Source: an uncultured bacterium
Lineage (GTDB): Bacteria; Armatimonadota; Abditibacteriia; Abditibacteriales; Abditibacteriaceae
DNA: 64,000 bases
Assembly (NCBI GenBank): GCA_963843795.1
Contig: CAWJLW010000006.1
Location: forward strand, 124,001 to 188,000
Direction: 5' to 3'
Both the position numbers and the translations under genes were made by a program. Under the pieces are notes generated by a model, which had not been told where the DNA came from, did no database searches, and was given only the letters and a program-made list of their open reading frames with translations. Positions within the stretch are counted from its first letter, which is position 1. The number at the start of each line of letters is the position of its first letter. Of the stretch, positions 1,017 through 61,966 are shown piece by piece.

Positions 1017-1079
1017 AAGAAATTGGGGTGCAAGTACTTGCAGCGAAAATCGGGAGGAAAAGTTGGAAACAGTTACGAC

Positions 1080-1111
1080 AACGCCGCGCTTTCCATAGAA
1101 AGCGCGGCGTT
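1080..1111 (-). terminator. Intrinsic terminator-like hairpin downstream of the prepilin-type gene
   Basis: AACGCCGCGCTTTC-cata-GAAAGCGCGGCGTT, 14-bp stem. Confidence 0.6.
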
Positions 1112-1129
1112 AGATTTTGTTGCGAAAAG

Positions 1130-1972
1130 TTACGGTGTGGTGAGAGGTTCGATGCACGAATCTTTGGTCATATCGCGTGTCGTGCCATCGAAGAAACCGG
1201 TGAGCGCGTTGCCTTTGGGCGAACCAAACGCCACATCGTGGAAGCGAATCGGGCCGGTCAGGCTCGATTTGTTGGCTTGGCCTTGAGTCGAGGTATTAAC
1301 GGGAAACGAATCCGGCGGAAGTGCTTTAGCGTGACCATCGGCGAACAAAAAGTTGGGACCGCCGTGATTGGCCGTCGCCGTATCGGTCGATGCAGTTTGT
1401 GCTGAAGCCCAGAAAAAGCCATCGTTGAGTGCTTCGTTTTCATCGACCAAAAGCACGATGCTGGACGGTTCTTTGACGCGCGCGCCATTAATGCCGCCCA
1501 CCGCGCAGTTCATCGAATAGGAAAGATGCTTGTCTTCGCCATATTCGGCAGAGGGGCAAATATAAACTTCGGCGTTGCGCGTGTAGGGCGCGATACCGCC
1601 TGCGCCGGTATTGGCAACATTGGGCGATTTCCAGCCGCCCTCATCATTACCGGGCGCGACAATATCGGCCAGAGGCTGATTGTTTGTGCCAGTCACCCAA
1701 TGACCGCTAGGCAATCCCCAGCCCTGATAATTGCCTGGAAACGGATAATAATCGCCGGAATCTTTCGTGTATTGCTGAAACGCCAATCCAAGCTGCTTCA
1801 TGTTCGACTGACAAGCGGTGCGTCGTCCGGCTTCGCGCGCATTGCGAAAAACAGGAAACAAAATTGCTGCTAAGATGCCAATAATGGCGATGACGACCAA
1901 GATTTCGACCAGAGTAAAGCCAGCACGACGCTGCGTTTTGTGGCGGGAAACAACAGGAAATGGACGTATCAT
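1130..1972 (-). CDS. Prepilin-type N-terminal cleavage/methylation protein with DUF1559 and H-X9-DG-like C-terminal motif
   Basis: [41 protein letters not shown] and [18 protein letters not shown] at 1972 with AAGGAG RBS. Confidence 0.9.
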
Positions 1973-2195
1973 GAGAATTCTCCTTGAACAACTAACGGCA
2001 TAACAATTGACGGCATCAGCAAGAGGAATTGTGCTGACGGACGAACCGCCAACGAATTTGCCGCTCATCGAAGTGCCGCTAAAGACACTTATTATTTTAC
2101 CGCGTTGCGTTCAATATATCACAAATGGCCGCGTGTTACCGTGGTGATAGGTGCAAATATCGTGATTTTTTGGTTCAGCAACTATACTGTCCGTT

Positions 2196-2735: not shown

Positions 2736-3894
2736 TCTCCCGTCGCAATTTGCCCCCGACAGTGAAGACGAACAATGGATGCGCCGCGCACTGCTTTGGA
2801 GTGCGCGCGGACGTGGTCTGACTTCACCTCGCCCTAGCGTGGGCTGCGTTTTTGTGCGCGATGGGCGCGAACTGGGCGGCGGCCATACGCAGCACGGCGA
2901 TGGCACACCGCACGGAGAAATTTCGGCTCTTAACGCCGCGCGCGCCAATGGTTTCGATCTTCGCGGAGCGACCGCTTATGTCACGCTTGAACCATGTTCG
3001 CACTGGGGCACGACGCCGCCGTGCGCCGAAATGCTGATTCGCGAAGGCGTGAAACGCGTGGTGTGCGGTGTGGTCGATCCCGATTTGCGCGTGGCCGGTC
3101 GTGGGCTGGCGAATCTACAAAGCGCGGGCATCGAAGTCGTGGCGGGCGTTTTAGGAGAAGAGTGTTTTCGAGCGCAAGATGCTTTTCTGCTTTCTGTCGT
3201 GCGCCAAACGCCGTTTATCTCTCTCAAACTCGCGGTTTCGCTTGATGGTAAGATCGCTTTAAATAATGGCCAATCGCAGTGGATTACAGGAGCGGGCGCG
3301 CGTGAACAAGTGCAGCGGTTGCGCTTCGAGCACGACGCGATTTTAGTCGGCGTAGAAACGATAATTCAAGACGATCCGCGTCTGACTTTACGTTTGCCAG
3401 ACAAGAATAAGCCCTTCGATAAACCTTTTGTGCGCATCGTTCTCGATTCGCGCGGTCGCGTGCCCATTGCAAGTACTTGCATCGCAACCGCACATGAGAA
3501 TCCGACAATTGTTGCGACGACCGATCAAATGCCCGATGAAAAACGTGTGGAATTGGAAGCTTTAGGCGTGCAAGTACTTGCCTGTGCGCCCGATGAAAGC
3601 GGGCGCGTGAATTGGGATTATTTGCGACGTCAGTTATGGAGTCACGGCATTTACAGCGTGATGATCGAAGGCGGCGCGCAAGTCGCGGGCAGCGCATTGA
3701 AAGCGCGCATCGTGGATCGCGTCGATTGTTTTGTTGCTCCGAAGTTTTTAGGTGATGGCCAAAGCGCATTAGCCGGTTTCTCGCTCAATAATTTGGCGGA
3801 TGCGCCGCAATTAGAACGCGTAAACACGCAAAATATCGGTGATGATATTCTGATTTCCGGCTATCTGCCGTCGCGCGAACCTTCCGATAATTGA
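2725..3894 (+). CDS. ribD: Bifunctional riboflavin deaminase/reductase RibD
   Basis: HGE...YVTLEPCSH.G.TPPC Zn-deaminase motifs; KLAVSLDGKIA, SQWITG, MIEGG reductase motifs; start (TTG 2725) approximate. Confidence 0.95.
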   Translation: MNPNLPSQFAPDSEDEQWMRRALLWSARGRGLTSPRPSVGCVFVRDGRELGGGHTQHGDGTPHGEISALNAARANGFDLRGATAYVTLEPCSHWGTTPPCAEMLIREGVKRVVCGVVDPDLRVAGRGLANLQSAGIEVVAGVLGEECFRAQDAFLLSVVRQTPFISLKLAVSLDGKIALNNGQSQWITGAGAREQVQRLRFEHDAILVGVETIIQDDPRLTLRLPDKNKPFDKPFVRIVLDSRGRVPIASTCIATAHENPTIVATTDQMPDEKRVELEALGVQVLACAPDESGRVNWDYLRRQLWSHGIYSVMIEGGAQVAGSALKARIVDRVDCFVAPKFLGDGQSALAGFSLNNLADAPQLERVNTQNIGDDILISGYLPSREPSDN

Positions 3895-3900: not shown

Positions 3901-4881
3901 ATGATTTTCGCATTGATGGCGATGATGTTCTTCGCCGGTTCCGCTGTCGCGGCCAATCGCGCCGTGCAAACGCTGGGTTCGCTCAAAACTAACGCGCTGC
4001 GTTTGGGCATCGCAGTTTGTGTCGGCACCGTCTGGGCGCTCACGTTCGGACACGGCGCGTGGGGCGCGGGCTTGCATTTGATGCTGATTTCAGGCGCGCT
4101 GGGATTTGGCGTCGGTGATGTCGGCTTGTTTCTCGCTTTGCCCCTGCTCGGTTCGCGTTTGACGGTTTTAATGACGCAATGTCTGGCGGTTCCATTGGCC
4201 GCGCTCACCGAATGGTTATGGCGCGGCACGGTTTTGACTTCTGCGCAAACGCTCGCGTCGGCTTTGATTTTGGGCGGCGTGGCGCTGGCTTTAGCGCCCA
4301 ACCAAAGCGACGAAAAAGCGAAATCTGCCGTCGGCAATTGGACAGTCGCGGGTGTGGTCTTCGGTTTGATTTCGGCAGCCGGACAAGGTTCGGGAGCCGT
4401 TTTTAGCCGCGCCGCTTTCGATGTCGTGAAACGCAGTGGACAGGAATTGGACGGTTTGACTGCTTCGTGGCAGCGCGCAAGCGCAGGCTTGATTATCGCG
4501 CTTTTAAGTTGGTGGGTTTTGGAACGCGTTTCGGCGCGCAAACTGAAATCGCCGCAAACCGCATTGGTCGAAGTCGCGCACGAAATTTCGGAGCACGAAA
4601 ACGAAAATGTCGCTGCAAGTACTTGCAGCGCGCAACCCGCGTCACATGGCACGCGCTGGCTGTTTCTACACGCGGCGTTGGGGCCGTTATTGGGCGTGGC
4701 TTCGTTACAAACTGCGCTCAAGACTACACCTTCGGCTTTAGTTTTGTCGATTGCGGCATTAACGCCCTTGGCCGTGATGCCCTTGGCGTGGTGGCTCGAA
4801 GGCGACCGGCCCGGCGCGCGCGCGCTTTTGGGCGCCGCGGTTGCTGTGGCGGGCGCAGCGTTGGCGGTTCACGCGACGTGA
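3901..4881 (+). CDS. DMT/EamA family transporter
   Basis: ~10 hydrophobic helices, SGALGFGVGD and EamA-like repeat. Confidence 0.8.
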   Translation: MIFALMAMMFFAGSAVAANRAVQTLGSLKTNALRLGIAVCVGTVWALTFGHGAWGAGLHLMLISGALGFGVGDVGLFLALPLLGSRLTVLMTQCLAVPLAALTEWLWRGTVLTSAQTLASALILGGVALALAPNQSDEKAKSAVGNWTVAGVVFGLISAAGQGSGAVFSRAAFDVVKRSGQELDGLTASWQRASAGLIIALLSWWVLERVSARKLKSPQTALVEVAHEISEHENENVAASTCSAQPASHGTRWLFLHAALGPLLGVASLQTALKTTPSALVLSIAALTPLAVMPLAWWLEGDRPGARALLGAAVAVAGAALAVHAT

Positions 4882-4896
4882 GCGGCTTTAAAACAC

Positions 4897-4934
4897 AAAA
4901 ATCGCTCCTGCAAGTACTTGCAGGAGCGATTTTT
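4897..4934. terminator. 38-bp perfect palindrome around the GCAAGTACTTGC core; bidirectional terminator candidate
   Basis: AAAAATCGCTCCTGCAAGTACTTGCAGGAGCGATTTTT between convergent genes. Confidence 0.75.
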
Positions 4935-4954
4935 CGTTTCAACAACTGGCAAAA

Positions 4955-5689
4955 TTACGCCAGCGCTTCGGACATTGGGCGCATTTGGATTTCGATAATG
5001 CGCGAACCTTCCGACTGTGTGCAAGCCAGCAAAACTACGTCGGCCACATCTTGCGCCTCTAACATTCCCGATTCGGCCACGCCTTCTTCGGTGCGACCAG
5101 TGCCGATGGCGAACTCGGTTTTCACGCCGCCGGGACAAATCACTCCGACTTTGATGCCCTTTTCGCGCAGTTCGCGGTCGAGCGCTTGGGCGAAACCAAT
5201 TTGCGCGAATTTGGTGGCGCAATAAACCGCTTCTCCGGCGAAGCCATAAATGCCCGCAATCGACGACAGCATTAACAAGGTGCCCGATTTTTGCTCGATC
5301 ATGACGGGAACCGCGTGGCGACTGAATAAAAATGTCGAGCGCACGTTGGTGTCCATCATATCGTCGTAATCTTGCGCGCTGGTTTCGACGAGTTCTTTAT
5401 ATTTGCCCGCACCCGCGTTGTTGAGCAGAATATCGATGCGGCCGAATTTGTCGACTGCCGCTTGAATAACCGCTTGCGCTGTGCTTTCTTCACGCGCATC
5501 GCCCGCGACGGCAATCGCTTGCGCGCCCGAATCCTCGCACTGCTTGACCAGTTCATCCAAACGATCTTGGCGCCGCGCTGTCAAAACTAAATTTGCGCCG
5601 TGTTGGGCCAATGTGCGCGCTGTGGCCTGACCGATGCCCGCGCTGGCTCCGGTGATAATGGCGACTTTGCCACCTAATTTTTTGCTCAT
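4955..5689 (-). CDS. Short-chain dehydrogenase/reductase (SDR)
   Basis: TGASAGIG, NNAG, S..YCATK catalytic motif. Confidence 0.92.
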   Translation of the reverse strand: MSKKLGGKVAIITGASAGIGQATARTLAQHGANLVLTARRQDRLDELVKQCEDSGAQAIAVAGDAREESTAQAVIQAAVDKFGRIDILLNNAGAGKYKELVETSAQDYDDMMDTNVRSTFLFSRHAVPVMIEQKSGTLLMLSSIAGIYGFAGEAVYCATKFAQIGFAQALDRELREKGIKVGVICPGGVKTEFAIGTGRTEEGVAESGMLEAQDVADVVLLACTQSEGSRIIEIQMRPMSEALA

Positions 5690-5812
5690 AAATTCTCCTG
5701 AAAATCGTTTCTAAAATGGAATGCGGGCATGTTAAAAGCAAATCTTACGCCTGCGAAATTTTCCATCACGCTTAAAATTGCGCGCCAAATGAGTTAAATT
5801 GAAAAGTCGATT

Positions 5813-6421
5813 ATGTTCACAGGATTAATAGAATGCGTCGGCACGCTGGCGCAATTGGAAAAACGCGGTGATGCCATGCGCCTCACCATCGATACCGGCG
5901 ACAGCAAGTACTTGCAGGACGCTCAAATCGGCGATAGTATCAGCGTTAATGGCGTTTGTCTCACCGCAACCCACATCGATGGCGCGCAGTTCAGCGTTGA
6001 TGCCATTGAAGAAACCTTGCGCCGCAGCACGCTTGGCCTCAAAAACGTTGGCGACCGCGTAAATCTCGAACGCGCGTTACTGGCGTCGGCGCGTCTGGGC
6101 GGCCACATTGTGCAAGGTCACGTCGATGGCGTAGCCGATGTGGTGCGTAATCAGGACGAAGGCCAAAGCTGGTGGGTCACGTTTCAGCCGCCGAGTGAAT
6201 TGATGCGCTACATCGTGCAAAAAGGTTCGGTGTGTCTGGATGGAATTTCGCTGACAGTCGCCAATGCGGCTTACGATAAATTTTCGGTCGCTCTTATTCC
6301 GCACACACGCGAAGTCACGACGGCAGACGAATGGCAGATGGGGGCGCAGGTGAATCTGGAAATTGATATCATCGCCAAATATGTCGAGCGCCTGACGCAA
6401 TTTGCACACGGCCACGAATAA
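5813..6421 (+). CDS. ribE: Riboflavin synthase (alpha chain)
   Basis: MFTGLIE start, GDSISVNGVCLT, VNLERAL, GGHIVQGHVDG. Confidence 0.97.
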   Translation: MFTGLIECVGTLAQLEKRGDAMRLTIDTGDSKYLQDAQIGDSISVNGVCLTATHIDGAQFSVDAIEETLRRSTLGLKNVGDRVNLERALLASARLGGHIVQGHVDGVADVVRNQDEGQSWWVTFQPPSELMRYIVQKGSVCLDGISLTVANAAYDKFSVALIPHTREVTTADEWQMGAQVNLEIDIIAKYVERLTQFAHGHE

Positions 6422-6451
6422 AAATCTTCTGCAAGTACTTGCAGAAGATTT
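6422..6451. repeat. 30-bp perfect palindrome with the iterated core
   Basis: AAATCTTCTGCAAGTACTTGCAGAAGATTT immediately after the ribE stop. Confidence 0.85.
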
Positions 6452-6491
6452 GCAGGGCACGCGAGACGCGGTTTAAAGCGTCCAACACTTT

Positions 6492-7748
6492 ATGTTTTCT
6501 TCCATTGAAACCGCACTTGAGGCTTTTAAAACGGGCCGTTTTGTGCTTGTTACCGACGACGAATCGCGCGAAAACGAAGGCGATTTGATTATGGCGGCGC
6601 AGTTCGTCGATAAAAGCGCCATCAACTTTCTGCTACAAAATGCGCGCGGTATGATTTGCGTGCCTCTTCCGGGCGACCGTTTGGATGCGCTGCAACTTGG
6701 CCCGATGACCGAACGCAACACGGACCGTCACGGCACCGCTTATACCACAACTATCGACGCTGCTCGCAAATTGGGCAACACGACCGGCGTTGGCGCTTCC
6801 GACCGCGCGCGCACCGTTCAAGCCTTGATTGACCCGCAAACGCGTCCCGACGATTTGTCGCGGCCCGGCCATATGCAACCATTGCGCGCGCGACAAGGCG
6901 GCGTTTTGGCGCGCGCCGGACACACCGAAGCCGCAATTGATTTGTGTCAACTGAGTGGCCTTTATCCCGGTGCTGTAATTTGCGAAGTGATGGACGATGA
7001 CGGCGATCCGGCGCGTCTACCAACCTTACAAAAATTGGCCAGCGAGCACGATATTCCGATGATTTCCATCGAAGAACTCATTCGCTATCGCCGCCGAACG
7101 GAGAAATTGGTCAAGTGGGTTGCCGAAGCGCGTTTGCCAACTGCTCTGGGTGAATTTCGGGCCATCGCCTACGAATCGATCATCGATCAAACGCCGTATG
7201 TTGCACTCGTCAAAGGCGAAATCGAAGCCGATAAACCGGCTCTGGTGCGCGTGCATTCCGGTTGTTTAACTGGTGATGCGCTTTTGAGCTTACGCTGCGA
7301 TTGTGGCGAACAATTGCACACCGCGCTGGAACTGATTAACGAAAGCGGCTGCGGCGTTTTGCTTTATATCGACCACCACGAAGGTCGCGGCATCGGCATT
7401 ATCAACAAGCTGCGCGCTTATTCATTGCAAGATCAAGGCATGGACACCGAACAAGCCAATCACGCTCTGGGCTTTGGCTCGGATATTCGCGAATACGGCA
7501 CGGGCGCGCAAGTTTTGCACGACCTGGGCGTGCGCAAAATGCGCCTTTTGACCAACAACCCCACCAAACGCGTCGGCCTGGAAGGTTACGGCTTAGAAAT
7601 CGTCGAACGCGTGCCTTTGCAGCCAACCGTACAGAAAGAAAACGAGCGTTATCTTTGGACGAAAAAGCACAAAATGAGTCATCTTCTCGATGCCTTTGAT
7701 GAAGTCAAGAGCGCCTACGACGAAAGCAACGGCGAACAGAAATTATAG
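6492..7748 (+). CDS. ribBA: Bifunctional DHBP synthase / GTP cyclohydrolase II
   Basis: DDESRENEGD, RAGHTEA, VRVHSGCLTGD..SLRCDCG, LLTNNP. Confidence 0.97.
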   Translation: MFSSIETALEAFKTGRFVLVTDDESRENEGDLIMAAQFVDKSAINFLLQNARGMICVPLPGDRLDALQLGPMTERNTDRHGTAYTTTIDAARKLGNTTGVGASDRARTVQALIDPQTRPDDLSRPGHMQPLRARQGGVLARAGHTEAAIDLCQLSGLYPGAVICEVMDDDGDPARLPTLQKLASEHDIPMISIEELIRYRRRTEKLVKWVAEARLPTALGEFRAIAYESIIDQTPYVALVKGEIEADKPALVRVHSGCLTGDALLSLRCDCGEQLHTALELINESGCGVLLYIDHHEGRGIGIINKLRAYSLQDQGMDTEQANHALGFGSDIREYGTGAQVLHDLGVRKMRLLTNNPTKRVGLEGYGLEIVERVPLQPTVQKENERYLWTKKHKMSHLLDAFDEVKSAYDESNGEQKL

Positions 7749-7878
7749 AAAGGAATGTGGAAGTTAGGATGTGGGAGGTGGAACCTCACATTATATAAAA
7801 TTGGCGCAGATAAGAAAAATTCACCCCGCAAGGACTTGCCGCACAATTCCAACTTCCACATTCTCCATTCCCCACATT

Positions 7879-8346
7879 ATGAAAATTCACGAAGGCCAAC
7901 TCAGTGCGCAAAATTACCGCATCGCGATTGTCGTCGCGCGTTTCAACGATTTTATTACCGAGCGCTTGCTCGAAGGTGCGACCGACAGCTTTCGTCGTCA
8001 CGGCGGCGATGCCGCAACCCTTGAAGTCGCGCGCGTGCCGGGCGCTTTTGAGCTGCCGATTGTCGCCAAAAAATTAGCTGAAACCGGCCGTTTCGATGCA
8101 GTGATTTGCCTGGGCTGCGTCATCAAAGGCGCGACCGATCATTACGATTACGTGTGCGGTCAAACCGCTTCGGGCATTATGAGCGCCAGTTTAAATAGCG
8201 GCGTGCCAATTATTTTCGGTGTTTTGACAACCGATTCCATCGAACAAGCCATCGAGCGCGCGGGCACCAAAGCTGGAAACAAAGGTGTCGATGCGATGCT
8301 GGCGGCGATTGAAACCGCCGGCGTTTTAAAGTCCATCGCTGAATAA
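7879..8346 (+). CDS. ribH: 6,7-dimethyl-8-ribityllumazine synthase
   Basis: [43 protein letters not shown]. Confidence 0.97.
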
Positions 8347-8368
8347 CATTGCAAGTACTTGCAAGCGC

Positions 8369-8420
8369 AAAATCCCAAAAAGCTCGCGCATCGATCGATG
8401 CGCGAGCTTTTTGGGATTTT
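8369..8420. terminator. 52-bp perfect palindrome (ATCGATCGAT centre) between convergent ribH and rplY
   Basis: AAAATCCCAAAAAGCTCGCGCATCGA|TCGATGCGCGAGCTTTTTGGGATTTT. Confidence 0.75.
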
Positions 8421-8437
8421 TGAATCTGGCCCGAAAA

Positions 8438-9109
8438 TTATTCGGTTTCGGCGTTGGCTTCGCCATCCGAACCGTGTTCCGAAGGCACTTCTTCGGCAGC
8501 AGCGGCTTGGGCTTCTGCTTCTTCGGGTGTCAGCGGCTCGACTTCTTCGGCGACCGGCGGGTTGACGACAGCAACCGGAGTTTCGCCATCGGTGATGGCG
8601 ACGACGCCATTGGGCATGCTCAAATCGCTGACCAAAATTGGCGCACCATTGAGTTCCAAACGCGAAACATCGGCTTCGATGTGGTCGGGAATGTCGCCGG
8701 GACGGCTGGCGATTTCAATATCCAACTGCGCCTGCACCAGAATGCCGCCTTCGACACGCACGGCGTCGGTTTCGCCAACCAGGACAATCGGCACGACAGT
8801 GTGAATCGTTTCGTTGCGCGATACGCGCTGGAAATCGACCGAATACGGATAATTTTTGGCCGGATGGCGATGAACGCTTTTCAAAATCGCGGTTTCGTTG
8901 ACGCCGCCTTCTTCTTCCAACACGACCATACCGCGCTGACCGCCATGCGAAATCAAATCGCGCAGTTCGCGCGCGTTGACGGCAATTTTAACCGGTTCTT
9001 CTTTGTGACCGTAAATCACGCCCGGCACTTCGCCGGTGGCGCGCATCTGTTTGGCCGATTCTTTACCTGTTGTGTTGCGACTGGTGACTTTCAAATGATA
9101 CGAAGACAT
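8438..9109 (-). CDS. rplY: 50S ribosomal protein L25/Ctc
   Basis: R...GK..AKQMR..GEVPGVIYG, HP......VDFQRV, acidic tail; downstream of prs. Confidence 0.93.
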   Translation of the reverse strand: MSSYHLKVTSRNTTGKESAKQMRATGEVPGVIYGHKEEPVKIAVNARELRDLISHGGQRGMVVLEEEGGVNETAILKSVHRHPAKNYPYSVDFQRVSRNETIHTVVPIVLVGETDAVRVEGGILVQAQLDIEIASRPGDIPDHIEADVSRLELNGAPILVSDLSMPNGVVAITDGETPVAVVNPPVAEEVEPLTPEEAEAQAAAAEEVPSEHGSDGEANAETE

Positions 9110-9161
9110 AAAACTCCTTAATTACGCTGTACAAGTACTTGCACAGCTTCTTACATTAAAT

Positions 9162-52742: not shown

Positions 52743-53114
52743 CTAATAATCGTCTTCGCTATCTTCGTCTTCCACATCGGGATCACCGTCGGAAAACGAA
52801 TCGAGTTCCTGACCTTTAAAGACAGTGACCAAGAAATCTTCGCGCGCGAACTGAGGCAAATGTGAACTGACAATGTCTTGATCGATTTGATCGACCAGTT
52901 CGGCGACCGCGTCACCGTCCAAATCTTTTTCTAAAATCAAAGTTGCATGAATCAAGTCGAGGCCGAAATGCAAATCGACCTGTCCCAGACGCGTGTCGTC
53001 TTGCCAGATGATAAAAATCTCTGACGATTCGGTGCGCACCACGCGCACCAAAGTTGCTCCAGAGCCTGCGCGTTCGCGCGCTCGGCGCGGTTCTTTATCT
53101 TCGTTTCGTGCCAT
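52743..53114 (-). CDS. Hypothetical protein
   Basis: RVVRTESSE..RLGQVDLHF..IHATL; acidic tail. Confidence 0.65.
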   Translation of the reverse strand: MARNEDKEPRRARERAGSGATLVRVVRTESSEIFIIWQDDTRLGQVDLHFGLDLIHATLILEKDLDGDAVAELVDQIDQDIVSSHLPQFAREDFLVTVFKGQELDSFSDGDPDVEDEDSEDDY

Positions 53115-53254
53115 CAATTCGCATCCTTAAAATGCCAGCTTTGCGGTTCCTGCGTGCGGCAAGTACTTGCGCAACTTCTTGCGGTGTCTATCAGATTATA
53201 GCGCAGCCTCGCAATTCTGACTTTAATCACGAGGAGTTGCGCTAAAATCGAAGC

Positions 53255-54892: not shown

Positions 54893-54909
54893 AGATGCCG
54901 TAAAACCAA

Positions 54910-54943
54910 AAAAGCCCGCTGCAAGTACCTGCAGCGGGCTTTT
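54910..54943. terminator. Palindromic terminator candidate with a one-mismatch core
   Basis: AAAAGCCCGCTGCAAGTACCTGCAGCGGGCTTTT between convergent genes. Confidence 0.7.
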
Positions 54944-54955
54944 GGCGTTCAAGAT

Positions 54956-56155
54956 TCAGGCGTAAGAGCCGCCCGCCACATCGCCGCGCTCTAAACGCGC
55001 GCGTTCGCGCTCGACGCCCACGCGGCTTTCGTAATCGCTTTCACGATAAGCCTGCAACGGATCAATCGGCAAATCGTGACCTCTGCGCCATTCTTCCAAA
55101 AGTGGCTTGATATCGGAATAGAAGGCGCGCTTCAGACATTCTTCGGCACCAACTATATCTTGTTTGCTTTGCATTTGCGCCAAAAGTTCGCGGTCGACCA
55201 GACACGCTTTGGCATAAAGTTCCTGCGCGGTTAAAGCGGTTTGCAACATGGCTTGAATTTTGGGTTTTAAGTTGTGCGATTGGTCGATCATATAGAAAAT
55301 TTTGTTGACATCAACGCCGCGCTCGGCGGCGTTGCGGATTTCGTGAAAAATACGAAACACGGCGTACGGGTCGATAGACCCCAGAGTCAAATCGTCGTCG
55401 GCATATTTGCGGTCGTTGAAATGAAAGCCACCCAGCATATTTTCGTCCAGCAAAGTCGCCACGATGTGCTCGATATTGGTGCCCTGCAAATGATGGCCGG
55501 TATCGACCAGAACTTTCGCATTCGGCCCGGCTTTTTTAGCGAATAGATACGCCATGCCCCAATCGGCGATGTCGGTATGGTAAAACGCCGGTTCAAACGG
55601 TTTGTATTCGACTAACAAAGTCATCTTGTCCGGCATCGCGTCGTGCCAGCTTTTAAACGCTTTTTCTAAACGCTTTTTGCGCGCAATGATGTCGTCTTGG
55701 CCGGGATAATTGGTGCCATCAGCCATCCAAAACGAAATGCAATCGGAATCAACGGCGCGCGCGATTTTCAGGCAATCTTCGACATGGCTGTTGGCTGCTG
55801 CGCGCGCGGCGTCAACTGGCGAACACGCCGAGCCGAATTTATAGATTTGGTCTTGAAACAAATTTGGATTGATCGAACCAATTTTCACACCGTGCTTTGC
55901 CGCCATTTTGCCGACTTCATTGGGGTCGGTTCCGGGCTTAAAATCCCACAAAACGTGCGTGGCAACGAGCGGGCAGCAACCGCTGTATTGATGCACGATG
56001 CCTGCGTCGGCCAATTTTTCTTCAATTGTCGAAGCCGCGGCACTTTGCGTGAATTTGCCGAAGCGCGTGCCGGTATCGGCGTAGCCCCATGAAGGCGTTT
56101 CGATATGAAATTCGTCGAGCAATTGAAACAATGCGTCATTCTGAATCACGGCCAT
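54956..56155 (-). CDS. rhaI: L-rhamnose isomerase (RhaI-type TIM barrel)
   Basis: ETPSWGYADTGTRF, W.ADGTNYPGQ, EYKPFEPAFYHTD, VDTGHH, GGFHFND.KYADDDL. Confidence 0.85.
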   Translation of the reverse strand: MAVIQNDALFQLLDEFHIETPSWGYADTGTRFGKFTQSAAASTIEEKLADAGIVHQYSGCCPLVATHVLWDFKPGTDPNEVGKMAAKHGVKIGSINPNLFQDQIYKFGSACSPVDAARAAANSHVEDCLKIARAVDSDCISFWMADGTNYPGQDDIIARKKRLEKAFKSWHDAMPDKMTLLVEYKPFEPAFYHTDIADWGMAYLFAKKAGPNAKVLVDTGHHLQGTNIEHIVATLLDENMLGGFHFNDRKYADDDLTLGSIDPYAVFRIFHEIRNAAERGVDVNKIFYMIDQSHNLKPKIQAMLQTALTAQELYAKACLVDRELLAQMQSKQDIVGAEECLKRAFYSDIKPLLEEWRRGHDLPIDPLQAYRESDYESRVGVERERARLERGDVAGGSYA

Positions 56156-56384
56156 AATTTTGGTTTTCCTTGCAATTTGGTTTGAGTTAAGTAAGACGGC
56201 CCGCGCACTACCCTGCAAGTACTTGCAGCGAGCTTTCTGGCAAAGCTGTCACGATAGATAGCCCGCGTTCTATTGTGCGCTGAGCTAAAACTTCCGTGGC
56301 TGAAAGAACCTGCTGTATTTTTGTGTTGGCACGATACGATTGAATTGTTTTCCTAAATGCCGCACCGTTTTCGGTAGAAAGCAT

Positions 56385-56440
56385 CATGGAAGTGCAAAAG
56401 CGCGCTGCAAGTACTTGCAGCGCGCTTTTGCACTTCCATG
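56385..56440. repeat. 56-bp perfect palindrome with the iterated core (longest found in the window)
   Basis: CATGGAAGTGCAAAAGCGCGCTGCAAGT|ACTTGCAGCGCGCTTTTGCACTTCCATG. Confidence 0.92.
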
Positions 56441-56451
56441 TTTCAAATTTT

Positions 56452-58443
56452 TCAATTCGATAATTCATCGACCAGCACGCGCAGAGTTTCGGAAACGCTC
56501 CAGGCCTGTGCGGGCGTGCCGCGCGGGTGGTGTGGTGCGTCGCCATCGAAAATTTCAGAAATTGAATTGATGCCAGCTTCGTCGAGATGGTTTAGCATTG
56601 GCTGCAACCAATCGCGAGATTGCTTGAGCGACTTCTTGCTGTGGCGATTAACGCGCAGATACGCACTGAGGAACGGCCCCAGAAGCCAGCCCCACACTGT
56701 GCCCTGATGATAACTGCTATCGCGCTGCCACTGATCGCCAATATAAATGCCGCGATAAGCCGGATCGTGCGGGCTGAGCGAGCGCAGACCATAAGGCGTG
56801 AGAAGTTCGCGCTGCACAGTTTCCACCACGCTTTTTTCCACTTTTTGCGTCAGCAGGCGATGCGGTAGCGAAACAGCAAAAATTTGGTTGGGGCGAATTT
56901 GGTCGTTTCTGTAGTCGCCGTCGATGAAATCATAAAGGCAGCCGCGTTCTTCATTCCAAAACTGCGAGGTAAAGTTGGCTTTGGCGCGCTTGTGCCAGCT
57001 TCTGCACCGTGTGGCGAACGGAATATCGCCCATTTGCGTGGCGAGATGTTCGGCAATATTCAAAGCGTTATACCAGAGCGCTTGAATTTCGACCGGCTTT
57101 CCGGCGCGTGGTGTGAATGCGACATCGCCAACTTTGGCGTCCATCCACGTCAATTGAGTGTTGCTACTCGCGTCGCCACCACGCAGCAAACCGTCGTTTT
57201 CATCGGCCTGAATGCCGTAACGCGTGCCGCGCCAGTGCCACTCCAAACAATCTCGTAACGTCGGATAAAGCGTGCTCAATGCGGTGCAATCATCGGGGCG
57301 CGCTTGAAGATATTGGCCGACCGCGTGGAAAAACCACAGAGTGGCGTCGATGGTGTTGTAATCGGGAATTTCACCGGCGTCGGGAAAGCGGTTGGGAATC
57401 ATGCCCTGCGAAACCGCGCCCGCAAAAGCCAGCAAAATCGAAAGCGCTTCGCCTTCGCGCTGCGTGGTCAGGCACAAACCGGGCAGCGCAATCATCGTAT
57501 CGCGGCCCCAATCGCTAAACCACGGATAACCGGCTAAAATCGTGTGCAAACCGTCGCGACGGCGCACGATGAATTGATCGGCTCCCAGCGCCAAACGCTG
57601 CACCCATTTCGCATCGCCGTTGCTCGCGCGTCCCGACATTTCGCCCAGCGCGCGCCGCCGACCGATTTCACTGCTTTTGGTCGCGCGCATTTGCTCGACA
57701 TCTACAGTTTCTGTTGAGAACACCAGGGTGGAAGCGTTATAGGGCGAAATTTCCCAACGCAGAACCCCCGGATTATAAGCATCTTCGCACCAATCCAAAC
57801 CGCGCTCGTGTTCTATCGTATATTGAAAATCGTAATACCATGTGCCTTCGGGAGAAAAATCAAAGTTGCCGCTCATCATTACGGGCGGCAAGCCCTGATG
57901 CGGACACATCGTGAGCGTGCGCATATCGCCAGCGACTTCATCGACGATATGTTTGTTGAAATCATCGTTTGTGTGATAGATGCCGTGATAATCGCGTCCG
58001 GTGATAAAAGGCCGCGCTGTGAACGTCACTTCGTGATCGGACAACAGTTCGTAAGTGATGACAGTCACATTGCGCTCGTGCGGCATCCACAAAGTTTTTT
58101 GCACCACGATATCGGCGTTCAGTCCGGTCGTCGCAGCGGGAATCACGTACGTCCAGCGCGGCAACGGGTCGATTTCAAAGCGGTCGAGCCATTGATAGCC
58201 TTGCGGATGAATTGCGTTGGGAAATTGATTGCAGCCCAGTTCAAAAGTTTGCTCGCCGTTGGGCGTGTTCAGGTGCACAGTTTCATTGACACGGTTGACC
58301 AGCACGACGCGCCCCAGCGGCGGTTGAGTCGCCGGACAAAACGCCGCATGATAGCGGCGCGCATTACAGTTGACCAGCGTGCCCGAAGCGAAACCTCCGA
58401 TGCCGTTGGTTTCAAGCCACTCACGAGATAAATCGAATTGCAT
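56452..58443 (-). CDS. Glycogen debranching enzyme / amylo-alpha-1,6-glucosidase
   Basis: EWLETNGIGGFASGT, AGYPWFSDWGRDTMI, LTWMDAK, GKPVEIQALWYNAL, YHQGTVW, QAWSV. Confidence 0.93.
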   Translation of the reverse strand: MQFDLSREWLETNGIGGFASGTLVNCNARRYHAAFCPATQPPLGRVVLVNRVNETVHLNTPNGEQTFELGCNQFPNAIHPQGYQWLDRFEIDPLPRWTYVIPAATTGLNADIVVQKTLWMPHERNVTVITYELLSDHEVTFTARPFITGRDYHGIYHTNDDFNKHIVDEVAGDMRTLTMCPHQGLPPVMMSGNFDFSPEGTWYYDFQYTIEHERGLDWCEDAYNPGVLRWEISPYNASTLVFSTETVDVEQMRATKSSEIGRRRALGEMSGRASNGDAKWVQRLALGADQFIVRRRDGLHTILAGYPWFSDWGRDTMIALPGLCLTTQREGEALSILLAFAGAVSQGMIPNRFPDAGEIPDYNTIDATLWFFHAVGQYLQARPDDCTALSTLYPTLRDCLEWHWRGTRYGIQADENDGLLRGGDASSNTQLTWMDAKVGDVAFTPRAGKPVEIQALWYNALNIAEHLATQMGDIPFATRCRSWHKRAKANFTSQFWNEERGCLYDFIDGDYRNDQIRPNQIFAVSLPHRLLTQKVEKSVVETVQRELLTPYGLRSLSPHDPAYRGIYIGDQWQRDSSYHQGTVWGWLLGPFLSAYLRVNRHSKKSLKQSRDWLQPMLNHLDEAGINSISEIFDGDAPHHPRGTPAQAWSVSETLRVLVDELSN

Positions 58444-58650
58444 AGTGAATAAAGAATTATTTAAATGGTTTTACATAATACCCAAAATACCGAATTATGG
58501 CGCGTGGCAAGTACTTGCCACACAAAAATTGGAGCTTATATCTTTTGCTTCATTTCTCTGTTGCGTCAAAATGGCCAAACTCAGAAAAGTCACACTCAGA
58601 CTTTGTGCGACCTTTTAATGTTCTCTTGCAACAATGCATTGTGCTTATAA

Positions 58651-59796
58651 TCAGGCAAAGCGCAAAATCAGCCAGCCGATAAGCGCGCCGCCCGCGATGA
58701 ACCACGCCGAATTGAAGCGCGTTTTATGCAGCAACAGCCACGAAACTAAGCAAATGCCCAGCGTCCAACCATCAATCAATGCCGCGCGTCCCAGTTGCAG
58801 TGAAACGCTGGCCATCAAGGCCAGCGACGCGGCGTTGACCGAGTCTAAAAACCAGCGCAGCGCGACTTTGTTTTGTGCGCGTTCGAGCGTGCCCAACAAA
58901 AGTTTGACTAACAGAAATGAAGGCAGGAAAATACCAATTGTCGCGGTGATTGCGCCCGCTGCGCCACCGATTTGATAGCCGACGAAAGTCGCGGTCGTGA
59001 AAACCGGGCCGGGTGTCATCTGGCCAATTGCTACGGCGTCGATGAGTTGCGTATCGCTGAGGTATTTGGGCACAAATTCGTCGCGCAAAAACGCCAGCAA
59101 AACGTAGCCGCTGCCGTATAAAATCGCGCCGATTTTCAAAAACGACCAAAACAGGAAAATGGTTTTGCCGCCCACAAGCGCGCTCGCCAATAATAAAGGC
59201 GCACTTTTGGGCGTCGTGTTTTCGTCATCGGGCGCTGCAAGTACTTGCGGCGTGGTTTGCCGCGTTTTCGAGCGTTGCAGCCCGCCCGCGCACAAACCGA
59301 GCAGAGCGGCGACGAATAAAATAAACACTTCATTGGCGCGCCCGCTCAATGCGGCGCCAAAAGCACCCAATGCCAAAATGTAAGTGAACGGATTTTTCAA
59401 CGCGGTCGGTGCCAATTTGCCCAACGCCTGCACGATAATCGCGATGACGACCGGCTGCACGCCATATAAAAGCGCGCGCGAAATCGGCAGTTGTCCGTAT
59501 TTCGCATAAGCGACCGAAAGCGCGAAAACGATGATGAAGGCGGGCAAAATGAAAGCGGCGCCCGCAACCCACAAGCCAGCAGTTCCCGCACGCCGGCGAC
59601 CGATGGCCATCGTGAGTTCGGTCGAGTTGGGACCGGGAATCAAGCTCATCGCACCCGCGAGATCGAGAAATTCCTGATTGGAAATCCAGCCGCGCCGCTC
59701 GACAAATTCGCGTTGCATCAGCGCGATGTGCGCGACCGGCCCACCAAACGAAACTATACCTAAACGCAGAAAAATTAACGCCAATTCACGAAGCAT
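58651..59796 (-). CDS. chrA: Chromate efflux transporter (long-chain CHR)
   Basis: SFGGPVAHI, IPGPNSTE, YGSGYVL, GQMTPGP. Confidence 0.93.
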   Translation of the reverse strand: MLRELALIFLRLGIVSFGGPVAHIALMQREFVERRGWISNQEFLDLAGAMSLIPGPNSTELTMAIGRRRAGTAGLWVAGAAFILPAFIIVFALSVAYAKYGQLPISRALLYGVQPVVIAIIVQALGKLAPTALKNPFTYILALGAFGAALSGRANEVFILFVAALLGLCAGGLQRSKTRQTTPQVLAAPDDENTTPKSAPLLLASALVGGKTIFLFWSFLKIGAILYGSGYVLLAFLRDEFVPKYLSDTQLIDAVAIGQMTPGPVFTTATFVGYQIGGAAGAITATIGIFLPSFLLVKLLLGTLERAQNKVALRWFLDSVNAASLALMASVSLQLGRAALIDGWTLGICLVSWLLLHKTRFNSAWFIAGGALIGWLILRFA

Positions 59797-59843
59797 AAAA
59801 AGAAGAATCGGTCATGATAAGCGTGGCAAGTACTTGCCGCGCT

Positions 59844-61880
59844 TCAATGCACATCGGGATACATCGGCAGTTGCGGCAGCGCGTTTTCATCGACCCTAAC
59901 GCCCTGCGCTTTGAGTTCTCTCAGCGGAACATCGCTGAAATTTTGCAAGAGTGAAGGATCGAGAATTTGCGCGGCGCGCTCTTTCGACCACGCGGGAGTT
60001 TTTTGAAACAAAACCACGCGCGGATGATCGTAAACTGTCAAAGCTTCTTCGCTATTATCATCGGGCAAATCGAGCGTCCATCCAAACAAATTCAGGCGCG
60101 GATAGCTGGCCCATTGTTTGACCGGCACAAAGCCCAGTTCGCCACCGAAAAGCGCGCTGTAATAGCGCTTGGTCAGCGGATAGCGCGGGCCGATACGCGG
60201 CAGCGAAGCCCACATTCGAGGCGAAGAAATCACGATATATTCGGTCTGGTCGAGCGTGTCCAAAAGATACTGTCGCTTGTTCATCGAATCGCTGTCGAGC
60301 AGCTTCAAATCGAGCATCACGAAGGGCGCTTTATCGCTCAGCGGCAGCGCATCGTCCCACACGGTTTCATTTGCCCAGCGCGTGCCACGCGGCTGCGCTT
60401 CCATCCATTTTGACGCCGCGACGCGTGTGTGAGGACGACGATAAATCGAACTTACCGCCGCGCCCCACAAAACTGTTCCACCCAACATCGCGCCGAATAC
60501 CAGCGCTGCAAGTACCTGCAGCGCATTTTGTGAACGCGTGCGGCTCCACTGCCACAATTGCTGCGCGCACCACGCGCCCAAAAGCGCCACAAACGGCGTC
60601 ATTAACAAATAGTAGCGCGTGAATTTGGAAAATTGACCGGCGTGATACCCAAAAATCAGCGCGACCCACAAAGCGGCAATCGCGATTTCGTATCGGTAAG
60701 GGCGCGCGACCAAAATGGGCACTTTGCGTGTTAAAAACAACCCCGGAATCGCGACAATTGCGGGCAGCATCAGTTGCCAGCCAACCGCCCACACCAGCAA
60801 GTTGCGCAACGGCCAGAGGTAATCGCTGCGCCCGAACCATTGCAAATTCCACGGCACATCGTTCAATCCCAGCGTAATATCGCGCTGCTGCGCCAGTGAC
60901 GCCCAAAAGTTGGCCGGTGCATTTGCGGGCCGCAAATCGAGCAAGCCACCCAGCGACCACCAGGCATTTTCGCCCCGAAACGCCATCGGATGAAAAACTC
61001 GAAACGCAAATACCGTTGCAATCAAAACCAAAATCGCGCCGCTTACCAACAGCCAACGTGTGCGTGATAAGCGAATATCGACACCGCTATTTAATAAAAA
61101 TAGGGGCAGAATCGGCGCGAATAAAATCGTCGAAATCTTGCACGCCAGCGCCAACCCCCAACCGATGCCGCAGACAAGCGCCCAGACGCTCGCGCGCCGC
61201 GTCGCAAGTACTTGCGCGCCATCGCGCCAGTGCAGCGCGGCCCAGAACGCGAAAACCAGCCAGAAGGCGGCGAAGGTATCGACGACATAAAAATGCGCGT
61301 GCTGCAAATGCAACGCAGTGAACGCGATGAGAATGCCCGCAACTGCGCCCCACAACACGCCCAGCCAGCGCCGCGCAATGAGCCACACCAGAACCACAGT
61401 TCCACTATCGAAGGCAGCCGACAAAAATCGGCCCAGCAGCAACATTCCTTCGTAATTATCACGATCTAATTTGCCCGCGATAAATTTGGCGAAAATTAGC
61501 GGAAATTGTCCGTATACGAACAATCCCATATTGGGCAAATTAAACGGATTGAGCGGCGAACGTGCACTATCGAACCACGCGCTCCAATTATCGGGCCAGC
61601 CCAGCGCGGGCACCGTCATGGTGAAAAAGCGCTCGTCGGGATGCAAGTGATAACCATCGTCCCAATTCAACCCGACGAAACGAAAACCGATGCCGAGCAG
61701 CAGCAAAACGCACAGCGCAAAATAACACGCGCGGCGCAACAACGGCGAAGTGAAAAAGCCTAATTTCTCCGCAATTTCAGCGGTTTGGTTTTCGGTTGTG
61801 GCCGGTTCGATTTCAGGTTTTGAATTCTGTTGATAGCACGCTTGAGCGCGCCGTTTTTTCTTGTATTTGCTTTTAGCCAT
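59844..61880 (-). CDS. GT-C fold glycosyltransferase (GT39-like)
   Basis: NWDD..HLHPDERF, YGQFPL, AHFYVVD, VYDHP.V. Confidence 0.8.
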   Translation of the reverse strand: MAKSKYKKKRRAQACYQQNSKPEIEPATTENQTAEIAEKLGFFTSPLLRRACYFALCVLLLLGIGFRFVGLNWDDGYHLHPDERFFTMTVPALGWPDNWSAWFDSARSPLNPFNLPNMGLFVYGQFPLIFAKFIAGKLDRDNYEGMLLLGRFLSAAFDSGTVVLVWLIARRWLGVLWGAVAGILIAFTALHLQHAHFYVVDTFAAFWLVFAFWAALHWRDGAQVLATRRASVWALVCGIGWGLALACKISTILFAPILPLFLLNSGVDIRLSRTRWLLVSGAILVLIATVFAFRVFHPMAFRGENAWWSLGGLLDLRPANAPANFWASLAQQRDITLGLNDVPWNLQWFGRSDYLWPLRNLLVWAVGWQLMLPAIVAIPGLFLTRKVPILVARPYRYEIAIAALWVALIFGYHAGQFSKFTRYYLLMTPFVALLGAWCAQQLWQWSRTRSQNALQVLAALVFGAMLGGTVLWGAAVSSIYRRPHTRVAASKWMEAQPRGTRWANETVWDDALPLSDKAPFVMLDLKLLDSDSMNKRQYLLDTLDQTEYIVISSPRMWASLPRIGPRYPLTKRYYSALFGGELGFVPVKQWASYPRLNLFGWTLDLPDDNSEEALTVYDHPRVVLFQKTPAWSKERAAQILDPSLLQNFSDVPLRELKAQGVRVDENALPQLPMYPDVH

Positions 61881-61934
61881 CGCGCGCAGTTTATCTTTCC
61901 CCTGCTGGCTTGTTTGCAAAAAAACCGAAATAAG

Positions 61935-61966
61935 AAAGCGCCCGGCAAGTACTTGCCGGGCGCTTT
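61935..61966. repeat. 32-bp perfect palindrome with the iterated core
   Basis: AAAGCGCCCGGCAAGTACTTGCCGGGCGCTTT. Confidence 0.85.

Follow-up and report, generated by a model that had tools for sequence, protein, structure and literature searches.

A highly iterated 12-bp palindrome with helically phased flanks in an Abditibacteriaceae genome: a possible DNA-uptake signal

The palindrome in the window and in the genome

The window is a 64-kb stretch of DNA from the 4.3-Mb genome (11 contigs) of an uncultured soil bacterium of the Abditibacteriaceae, labelled G000 in the comparisons. Its genes include ribD, ribBA, and those for riboflavin synthase and a fucose isomerase, and the 12-bp palindrome GCAAGTACTTGC recurs among them (Table 1). 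Exact copies number 44, against a mean of 0.01 and a maximum of 1 in dinucleotide shuffles (n = 100), and matches with at most one mismatch number 57, against a shuffle mean of 0.14. A sequence-only reading had reported about 44 exact copies and about ten single-mismatch variants; the count of 44 was reproduced and all ten listed variants were recovered together with three more. Thirteen of the exact copies are coding and 31 intergenic (21 in tandem, 6 in divergent, and 4 in convergent gaps), a gene context that rests on the analyst's own gene calls. The earlier statement "most intergenic gaps" has to be lowered to about half to three quarters of the gaps longer than 30 bp.

Table 1. Motif copies and associated features in the 64-kb window
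Feature	Position	Strand	Remarks
All 44 exact palindromes GCAAGTACTTGC	1030..61956		weak symmetric flank consensus AAAAGCGCGCT-core-AGCGCGCTTTT
Two copies within ribD	3469..3581	+	3469 read ASTC, 3570 read QVLA
Copy at apex of perfect inverted repeat, convergent genes	4897..4934		bidirectional terminator-like hairpin, GUAC loop; RNA fold -27.4 kcal/mol, z -9.6
Copy within riboflavin synthase gene	5904..5915	+	KYL frame
Copy with 9-bp site-specific arms	6422..6451		riboflavin synthase / ribBA gap
Copy with 18-bp perfect site-specific arms	23004..23051		convergent gap 3' of fucose isomerase gene
Copy with 12-bp arms and A/T tails	25460..25495		terminator-like
Copy with 11-bp arms	27023..27056		stop codon 22 nt before
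Copy with 9-bp arms and T tail	28370..28399
Copy with full consensus arms	30855..30888		convergent gap
Copy with 12-bp arms	40468..40503
Copy with 11-bp consensus arms	43481..43514		stop codon 27 nt before
Copy with 10-bp arms	48141..48172
Head-to-tail pair, exact 49381 and one-off 49393	49370..49415		centre of a single long hairpin
Copy with 22-bp perfect arms	56385..56440		RNA fold z -10.1
Copy with 10-bp arms	61935..61966
Remaining coding copies	4615, 19092, 34786, 36823, 41604, 43349, 51154, 54573, 59237, 61204		span 4615..61215; without long arms
13 single-mismatch copies	7828, 9131, 12738, 15450, 18530, 18690, 34001, 41380, 49393, 52723, 53737, 54921, 60508		span 7828..60519; 49393, 52723, and 53737 added to the ten listed earlier

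The enrichment holds genome-wide, where the exact 12-mer occurs in 2,567 copies (0.6 per kb) on every one of the 11 contigs. Coding copies number 751 (29%), which corresponds to a 14-fold intergenic bias, and perfect copies outnumber one-off copies by 2567:506, a point in favour of an uptake signal. Short-read contigs from runs X1 and X2 (one study, possibly the source sample) cross the sites at 43349, 44961, 45931, and 53159 with the motif unaltered. The same core is present in three more metagenome contig sets that are about 70% identical to G000 (about 1.2 AGTACT per kb), and the motif is therefore not an assembly artefact, a concern that the sequence-only reading had raised. The observation itself is confirmed, and no earlier description of the motif was found in the literature searched.

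Many copies lie in hairpins. The core is contained in 532 of 771 terminator-like hairpins (69%), arms of at least 8 bp flank the motif at 183 of 291 convergent sites, and the motif is enriched in convergent gaps. Site-specific perfect arms reach 33 bp, and, like the pair in the window, exact 12-nt pairs in other parts of the genome are found at hairpin centres. A 13-mer variant with one central A or T added, which lacks GTAC, occurs in 66 copies with the same flank phasing as the motif. Few copies lie in islands of mobile DNA of the IS, restriction-modification, or injection-system type.

Origin of the sites and dialects among relatives

Orthologue comparisons determined that 79 of 99 sites align without gaps, which indicates a mostly substitutional origin and counts for an uptake signal. 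Extra G000 residues beside the motif were found in 19 of the 99 comparisons, against a background of about 4%; this is not predicted by point mutation alone and counts against the uptake reading. The metagenome comparisons gave 7/53 and 7/51 against about 3%. The copy in the riboflavin synthase gene aligns gap-free with the orthologues of G009, G001, and one motif-poor relative, and the ribD orthologue of G009 carries its own dialect at the second place (3570), also without gaps. Between close species the sites differ by synonymous or clustered substitutions, and sites alter proteins. Between two species that are 83% identical, 88 of 117 sites retain the core, compared with 542 of 2152 same-GC 8-mers and 152 of 456 other palindromic 8-mers in the same pair. 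Analysis of short-range spacing revealed that sites are more evenly spaced than chance (gap CV 0.757 vs a null of 0.870 ± 0.026). Coding density rises about five-fold with distance from intergenic sites, from 0.08 to 0.35–0.48 per kb, with three control words flat; sites fill gaps.

Enrichment of the exact 12-mer does not extend to 40 relatives, nor that of its 10-base core to 400 genomes of the phylum. The finding is not refuted by this, because relatives carry other dialects. Dialects with a common AGTAC were found in 7 of 27 family genomes, which counts for the uptake reading; the counts and samples taken for the other 20, including G017, the sister of G012, revealed no such motif. GTAC is present in every main dialect, AGTACT reaches 0.75–1.2 per kb in six genomes, and dialect words are 8–24 bp long. 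The dialect of G006 is a 24-bp palindrome that resembles an inverted pair of Haemophilus uptake sequences. Its half-site AAGTACGGT matches 8 of the 9 bases of the Haemophilus USS core, in favour of the uptake reading, with a chance probability of up to about 0.1 once multiple comparisons are allowed for. The half-site is followed by an A/T run similar to that of the USS, and the half-sites form inverted pairs with an 8-base spacer, the commonest spacer of USS pairs. The half-site breaks the USS inner core (ACGG vs GCGG), which counts against the uptake reading. The family offers natural experiments: it has at least five dialects, some sites are common to dialects, and sister genomes differ in whether they carry the motif. 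This should make the reader of the motif findable by comparative genomics of whole proteomes.

Helically phased A/T flanks

A/T tracts on both sides of the motif centre are helically phased, with a best period of 10.5–10.6 bp and an extent of about 70–80 bp; this is an average over sites, which single sites do not show. The phasing is present in six dialect groups, with a similar phase in G009, G006, G001, G012/G015/G019, and the metagenome sets. Its amplitude is 0.27–0.29 in both arms and at coding and intergenic sites, compared with 0.05–0.075 for control tracts, and holds when the nearest tract is left out. Synonymous choice strengthens the phasing in genes (0.25/0.29 vs 0.14/0.21). Among 190 close motif pairs, spacings peak near 20, 30, 40, 51, and 62 bp (R 0.30 at 10.5); beyond 45 bp the pairs are only weakly phased (p about 0.003), and the metagenome sets did not show phasing of pairs at 10.5. 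GC minima lie about 15, 25, 37, 46, 57, and 67 bp from the motif centre, in agreement with the nucleosome register.

Pasteurellaceae USS feature a weaker, upstream-only phasing with an amplitude of 0.157 ± 0.029 (controls 0.005–0.039). Its register is near that of the motif (phase 2.3 vs 2.9), which counts for the uptake reading. In reading frames 0.124 of 0.19 remains after synonymous resampling, and outside long frames the amplitude is 0.085 ± 0.035, so that the parallel is a weak one. No clear phasing was seen in the flanks of 153 DUS sites and none at 133 HIP1 sites on a Nostoc plasmid (0.057 ± 0.042). The phased flanks around the motif are a new element of this analysis and provide a measurable signature, applicable to every HIP-like word for sorting by mechanism.

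Possible roles of the motif and likeness to known systems

By analogy, the motif most resembles the self-recognition tags used by Haemophilus and Neisseria for the uptake of their own DNA, and the best reading, a tentative one, is a palindromic DNA-uptake signal. The sequence-specific part of a type IV pilus/ComEA/ComEC machine would favour motif DNA with bendable flanks, and fragments that bear the motif would be taken up and recombined more often. Mutations toward the motif would spread by molecular drive where genes and spacers tolerate them, and the spread would stop near one site per 1–1.6 kb, where further sites are useless. As the specificity of the reader drifts, flanks would change, in part at sites already present, and dialects around AGTAC would result; a single palindromic copy could form the apex of a terminator hairpin, the role of inverted DUS/USS pairs elsewhere.

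In favour of this reading, G000 has matches to pilB/T/C/D, minor pilins, pilMNO, secretin, comEA, comEC, dprA, and comM, several of these pilus and competence genes being named by the analyst's reading of the sequences. The conservation of the core between species, the even spacing with the rise in coding density, the share of terminator-like hairpins that contain the core, and the rarity of sites in mobile DNA also favour it. Against it, comEC, comEA, and pilM are found whether a genome is rich or poor in the motif, motif-poor relatives have the competence genes to the same extent, and loss of the motif does not track loss of competence. The lack of dprA in G017 is an assembly gap, because topA is also missing, and the comM gene of G017, G006, and G009 alike is cut or split. 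No reader of the motif was found among the candidates examined, and no basic short pilin like ComP/PpdA is evident by length and charge among the 57 prepilin genes, about 50 of which are DUF1559-like. PMC7811141 reports that two USS within 100 bp do not increase uptake, which also speaks against an uptake role, and the two-sided 70-bp phasing with helically spaced close pairs fits an intracellular binder better than uptake.

Such a binder could be a nucleoid protein, abundant and dimeric, that occupies the palindrome roughly once per gene and there bends or wraps some 140 bp of DNA, as a sequence-positioned, nucleosome-like chromosome code kept by selection. We consider this unlikely. Strong two-arm phasing of similar phase across dialects and metagenome sets, the contribution of synonymous choice, the helically spaced pairs, and GC minima in the nucleosome register argue for it, and the 13-mer variant would be tolerable to a half-site binder. 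The histone-fold profiles PF00808 and PF09123, however, each matched 0 of 5 genomes (divergent histone families may escape them), a TetR match is absent from G000, a single HU match occurs in rich and poor genomes alike, and tandem AP2-domain proteins occur in both groups. The motif-poor majority of the family, G017 included, is odd for essential architecture, and the limits of the pair phasing weaken the case. More improbable is a methylation-directed repair ratchet (Elhai's HIP1 model), in which GTAC/AGTACT is methylated and a repair nuclease biases mutation toward a fixed context until saturation near one site per kb; it is compatible with, and not exclusive of, a role in transformation. 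GTAC in every main dialect, under-dispersed spacing, and an AGTACT density at the set point predicted by Elhai (PMC4390886, as excerpted) are consistent with it, as is a DPPY beta-class orphan methyltransferase (C6:2517365-2518135) kept across the family. This enzyme, the only orphan methyltransferase, does not track the motif, as it occurs in 13 motif-poor genomes as well as in 7 of 7 rich ones. Between the two groups its sequence differs at no more than 2 of 265 columns, and the motif-poor G020 shares one of these differences. Among solved structures it is nearest to M.RsrI (E 1.6e-36), whose specificity is GAATTC. A C5 methyltransferase was unmatched in G000, G001, and G012, 66 copies of a variant without GTAC are tolerated, and the model does not predict flank phasing, which HIP1 on the Nostoc plasmid lacks.

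It is very doubtful that the motif is a tiny REP/MITE-like element or scar placed by a transposase, nuclease, or fold-back synthesis. The extra residues, the head-to-tail duplicates, the long perfect arms, and the REP-like look of the 24-bp G006 element point to it, but most sites are gap-free, close species differ by substitutions, and genes harbour 751 of the copies. Y1 transposases are absent in G006, weak in G000, and plentiful in motif-poor genomes, the RAYT-like gene of G000 is broken by a stop and has its own GTAG REP repeats, no GTAC target duplications were found, and Ku matched 0 of 5 genomes. Strong sites for gyrase (a type IIA topoisomerase), cut with a 4-base GTAC stagger, are scarcely credible. 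The convergent-gap enrichment, a long periodic footprint that resembles the 130-bp gyrase motif (PMC6379681, in part), and agreement with the pneumococcal topo IV consensus (PMC3814380) at six preferred positions favour them, yet three disfavoured positions of that consensus are also present. On the analyst's reading, the E. coli matrix (PMC6379681 supplement DS10) has GC minima about 19, 30, 40, 51, and 61 bp from its centre, antiphase to the motif flanks, and GyrA has one weakly discriminating column, outside the catalytic region.

The interpretation of the sequence-only reading is thus partly supported. A protein-recognised, HIP- or uptake-like signal is backed by the origin of the sites through substitution, their conservation across species and even spread, the dialects, and the phased flanks; the partners it suggested (methyltransferase, RAYT/TnpA, ComEA) do not co-distribute with the motif where tested. 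If the DNA-uptake reading holds, a prospect still somewhat short of probable, the Abditibacteriaceae may be the third bacterial DNA-uptake-sequence family. They would also be the first such family beyond the Proteobacteria and the first whose dialects are self-palindromic, and the signal would be a bendable element of about 140 bp centred on the palindrome, perhaps shared one-sidedly by Pasteurellaceae USS. Were the reader cytoplasmic, it would be a sequence-positioned, nucleosome-like code in a bacterium without a recognisable histone.

Comparison with USS and DUS draws on parts of PMC1626085, PMC3630211, PMC7811141, and PMC12616744. Like these, the motif features about one site per 1–1.6 kb, a very strong consensus, substitution origin in permissive places, terminator use, dialects with a common core, and A/T flanks. 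Perfect copies that outnumber one-offs are described as an unusual trait of USS/DUS (PMC1626085, excerpt), and DUS dialects share a core, with overlapping dyad DUS pairs in Simonsiella (PMC3630211, excerpt). Unlike them, the motif is self-palindromic, belongs to another phylum, and is phased symmetrically to about 70 bp; its core is AGTAC, and their inner cores, CTG in DUS and GCGG in USS (PMC12616744), are absent from the 12-mer. Competence machinery is present in G000, but is not specific to motif-rich genomes. REP/RAYT systems are likewise palindromic, intergenic, hairpin-forming, and present in hundreds to thousands of copies, whereas the motif is 29% genic with variable arms and mostly gap-free alignments, is not an extragenic fixed unit spread by insertion, and has no cognate co-distributed RAYT, the RAYT-like gene having separate GTAG repeats. 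The SlmA binding sequence GTGAGTACTCAC (PMC3020112) is a 12-bp palindrome with an AGTACT centre, and has GAGTACTC in common with the G009 and G012 dialects. SlmA is not supported: the motif has thousands of copies, PF00440 (TetR) was unmatched in G000, G001, G006, G015, and G019, and the terminus is not depleted (at the skew maximum, 100 kb contain 61–64 sites). The E. coli gyrase motif likewise has a helical periodicity of GC over a symmetric stretch of about 130 bp, but is antiphase and degenerate where the motif core is an exact 12-bp word (PMC6379681). HIP1 and alternate HIPs (PMC4390886, PMC5861425, and PMC13756078, in part) are also hyper-abundant palindromes in genes and spacers at about one per kb, with cross-species conservation, substitution spread, and replacement by other words in some lineages. 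HIP words are GC-rich (≥75%) and cyanobacterial, while the motif has 50% GC; it is also longer (8–24 bp), with a 14-fold intergenic bias, terminator apices, phased flanks, and no tracking methyltransferase among those matched. It surpasses the over-representation (>16-fold) and density (>0.2 per kb) of HIPs, at 44 copies vs 0.01 and 0.6 per kb, and its conservation exceeds that of control palindromic 8-mers (88/117 vs 152/456).

Distribution of the palindrome and its dialects

The highly iterated 12-bp palindrome GCAAGTACTTGC, which has a 10-base core centred on AGTACT, is a real feature, as the sequence-only reading had held: the window contains 44 exact copies (shuffle mean 0.01) and 13 copies with a single mismatch, and the genome under study (G000; 4.30 Mb in 11 contigs) contains 2,567. 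No other palindromic 12-mer is as frequent among the top words of G000. Homologues of one gene have source names that assign the organism to Abditibacteriaceae. The window spans C6:124001-188000 of G000, and its gene content is ordinary housekeeping DNA, with riboflavin, sugar and transport genes. The number of copies with 0, 1, 2 and 3 mismatches is 2567/506/371/1534 in G000 and, scaled, 0/0/94/1618 in the relative G006. A 13-mer variant with an extra A or T at the centre occurs 66 times in G000, 54 of them intergenic. Motif density is flat along the large contig C6, including at the skew maximum, and the motif is scarcer in regions interpreted as islands of IS, of type I restriction genes and of injection-system genes. 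The element that splits comM in the relative G009 is likewise motif-poor (3 AGTACT per ~8.5 kb).

The exact 12-mer is present in 0–3 copies in each of 40 relatives, and the core reaches at most 19 copies in any of 400 phylum genomes versus 2,706 in G000. AGTACT counts are bimodal over the 27 family genomes, at 2,813–4,733 in 6 and 1–285 in 21. Seven of the 27 are rich, meaning that they carry an iterated version of their own (a dialect, see table); no comparable word was seen in 6–118 kb samples of the remaining, poor genomes, samples small enough to miss one. Beyond these word counts, genomes other than G000 were examined in samples of 6–452 kb each. In a rapidly built RpoB tree of 29 rows, from which the short G025 was omitted, the rich genomes fall in the genera g1 (2/2) and g6 (5/6); their sisters without the motif are G017 (sister of G012) and G003 (of g6).

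Several side observations concern other words. The G001-type words CAAAGTACTTTG and AAAAGTACTTTG occur 11 and 17 times in G000, possibly as remnants of an older dialect or as acquired DNA. Samples of genus g5 (L012, L015, L022, L027, L057-L060) are nearly devoid of GTAC and CTAG (observed/expected 0.09 and 0.06), a mirror image of the motif-rich genera. The non-palindromic CGTGGCTGC is mildly over-represented in G007 (L021, L065, L152; 16 per 61 kb versus 0.9 expected), G018 (L066) and G016, and is possibly a Chi-like or other low-density signal. Viral contigs gave 6 single 16-mer matches; the G009 14-mer retrieved 119 stretches, 8 of which show a modest AGTACT excess, and the contigs L658, L679, L684 and L711 hold 7–19 AGTACT per 16–20 kb.

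Dialects of the motif and positions of features discussed in the text
Feature	Genome or locus	Position	Observation
Dialect CAAAGTACTTTG	G001
Dialect TCGAGTACTCGA	G009, G015, G019
Dialect CGAGTACTCG-like	G012
Dialect AGTACGGTCGAWWTCGACCGTACT, 24-bp palindrome	G006 (AGTACT-low)		131 perfect pairs among ~406 half-sites per 400 kb
Dialect CAAGTACTTG	Metagenome loci L163-L242		Mostly three assemblies, 61-70% GC, ~70% identical to G000
DUF1559-like prepilin paralogues	G000, window	1130-1972, 23043-23672	~50 in G000, two in window
Near motif copy in 16S rRNA gene	L001	1713-1726	Hairpin GCAAGT-TT-ACTTGT, two bases added centrally
Cluster read as contractile injection system	G000	C3:2634-27317	Sheath, tube and baseplate genes; 32 kb motif-free
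Orphan M.RsrI-like adenine methyltransferase	G000	C6:2517365-2518135	56-75% identity in 19/19 relatives checked, neighbours changing
Fused N6-methylase/specificity gene	G000	C6:2026314
RAYT-like gene (L323)	G000	C6:750558-753788	In-frame stop; GTAGGGCG-type REP palindromes either side
Candidate minor-pilin cluster	G000	C6:385-397 kb	Partly frameshifted
Tandem AP2 proteins	G000	C6:1248447, C6:2124483	Matched in 18/31 class genomes, rich and poor
comM split or cut, three g6 genomes	G009; G006; G017	C1:2145624-2176085; C3 and C18; C50

Placement, spacing and origin of sites

Genes were called with our own hexamer model on an assembly that contains frameshifts, which gave 3,454 genes in G000. The motif density is 0.20 per kb in coding and 2.9 per kb in intergenic DNA. 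Of the copies, 751 are coding and 1,240 lie between tandem genes; convergent gaps hold 291 and divergent gaps 265, while 20 could not be assigned to a class. The proteins carry the mark of the motif, since QVLA is found 563 times where 38 are expected and 500 of these are spelt by the motif.

Arm complementarity beyond the core is specific to each site and well above that of shuffled arms. Perfect arms of at least 8 bp are commonest at convergent sites (63%), followed by tandem (23%), divergent (8%) and coding sites (1%). The core lies within 532 of the 771 terminator-like hairpins 3' of genes in G000. RNA folding of six terminator-like window sites gave z-scores of −4 to −10; one armless site had no such fold. 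The G-U excess in the stems is slight (55 G-U vs 39 A-C in 392 hairpins). No known RNA family overlaps the motif, and the sole RNA-family match in the window is a tRNA.

Coding motif density rises with distance from an intergenic site. It is 0.08 per kb in the first 200 bp and reaches 0.35–0.48 per kb at 1.5–5 kb; its one fall comes in the final bin, which is small. Three control words stay flat. The gaps between motifs are under-dispersed (CV 0.757 vs 0.870±0.026 for a null with intergenic sites fixed), as though the cell required roughly one site in each stretch. The spacing of close pairs favours helical multiples (R 0.30 at 10.5 bp over 190 pairs). Beyond 45 bp this preference weakens, and the metagenome sets do not show it at 10.5.

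The dialects share sites. AGTACT is present in G009 at 5 of 37 G000 sites, and at shared Val-Leu pairs it is found in G009 at 5/9 with the G000 core vs 11/203 without, and in G001 at 4/7 vs 1/51. In two metagenome species that are 82.9% identical, AAGTACTT is retained at 88 of 117 sites (25% for matched controls) and ranks second in conservation among 342 common 8-mers; coding sites that are not shared differ by synonymous or clustered substitutions.

Phased flanks and comparison with known signals

A/T tracts repeat every 10.5 bp on both arms of the motif in G000, with a relative amplitude of 0.29 in genes; intergenic sites outside hairpins give 0.28, and sites that lack the nearest tract give 0.27. 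The value for control tracts distant from motifs is 0.05–0.075, and the phasing fades by about 75–80 bp. A like phase is found in G009 (0.21), G006 (0.16), G001 (0.18), G012/15/19 (0.25) and the metagenome sets (0.10), with standard errors of 0.02–0.08. On synonymous resampling in genes, 0.14/0.21 of the 0.25/0.29 amplitude remains; over half of the coding phasing thus survives, so part of it is carried by amino-acid choice, a confound from which the intergenic phasing is free. The phased flanks point to recognition of double-stranded, bendable DNA.

HIP1 and alternate HIPs (PMC4390886, PMC13756078, PMC5861425) and DUS/USS (PMC3630211, PMC12616744, PMC7811141, PMC1626085) served as comparators. 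HIP1 in a Nostoc plasmid (133 sites, 200 kb) has a flank amplitude of 0.057±0.042, and 153 DUS in viral contigs gave 0.04–0.11 with errors near 0.05. The USS set comprised 513 single sites in 64 loci, after loci with fewer than 0.3 USS per kb or shorter than 3 kb were dropped and anchor matches were excluded; upstream phasing is 0.157±0.029 (controls 0.005–0.039), with a phase, aligned on AAGT, of 2.3 vs 2.9 for the G000 motif. This result is only suggestive, because the USS phasing largely survives synonymous resampling in long frames and is 0.085±0.035 outside them. The USS of the Pasteurellaceae loci L392-L469 appear to have 10.5-bp A/T phasing upstream to 60–80 bp, partly from amino-acid choice; the USS alignment in the accessible part of PMC1626085 took in just 11 upstream bases. 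Of the 9 bases of the Haemophilus USS core, the G006 half-site has 8; the run downstream of it is also similar, and its pairs have the 8-base spacer that is common in USS pairs. The probability of such a core match by chance is 0.002 for a single comparison and as much as 0.1 when all comparisons are allowed for.

The motif appears to work like DUS/USS or HIP and by sequence belongs to neither. The proposal of a HIP- or uptake-like system unlike recognised families is partly supported. No description of the motif was found in the literature, although supplements of methylome surveys might list it for an Armatimonadota genome. The exact 12-mer had no mention in a search that mostly excluded subscription journals, and a search for Abditibacteri with palindrome, AGTACT or methylation motif gave no relevant title among the matches listed; other literature searches yielded comparators alone. 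The present analysis adds the G006 dialect, the filling of gaps, the phased flanks and the comparator tests to the dialect picture.

Candidate readers and alternative readings

A role as a DNA-uptake signal is tentatively favoured, at slightly less than an even chance. The uptake-related genes comEC, comEA, pilM, comM and dprA occur in rich and poor genomes alike, and the co-distribution expected for ComEA was not borne out. It is rather unlikely that the motif is a site for nucleoid wrapping, a reading that the phased flanks favour; HU is common to rich and poor genomes, histone folds have no match in G000, and neither is supported as a binder. A methylation ratchet, in which methylation would drive the accumulation of sites, is improbable: the orphan methyltransferase, a candidate CcrM-like housekeeping enzyme, is found in rich and poor genomes alike and a C5 methyltransferase is unmatched in G000. 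No co-distributed methyltransferase of the kind suggested was found among these.

An origin of the sites as inserted elements is very improbable. When sites are aligned by codon with their orthologues, 79 of 99 comparisons have no gap within 9 bases, and the remainder have extra residues in G000 at 19/99 and in the relative at 1/99 (background ~4% each; some sites were counted against more than one relative). RAYT/TnpA had also been proposed as co-distributed; Y1 transposases are present in rich and poor genomes, and the RAYT-like gene of G000 is broken and has its own REP palindromes. That the motif is a gyrase site is scarcely credible, as the E. coli gyrase matrix (PMC6379681, sheet DS10) is in antiphase to the motif flanks; GyrA is shared by rich and poor genomes.

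No reader, i.e. a protein recognising the motif, was found among the candidate proteins examined in rich and poor genomes. TetR and Ku are unmatched in G000, and neither SlmA nor Ku is supported; nor are the AP2 proteins, which occur in rich and poor genomes. A link between loss of dprA and of the motif in G017 was rejected because the adjoining topA is likewise unassembled. The aligned part of G017 comM does not include the apparent stops. Fragments of the 3' part of comM are numerous in g2 genomes, suggesting that comM is an integration hotspot.
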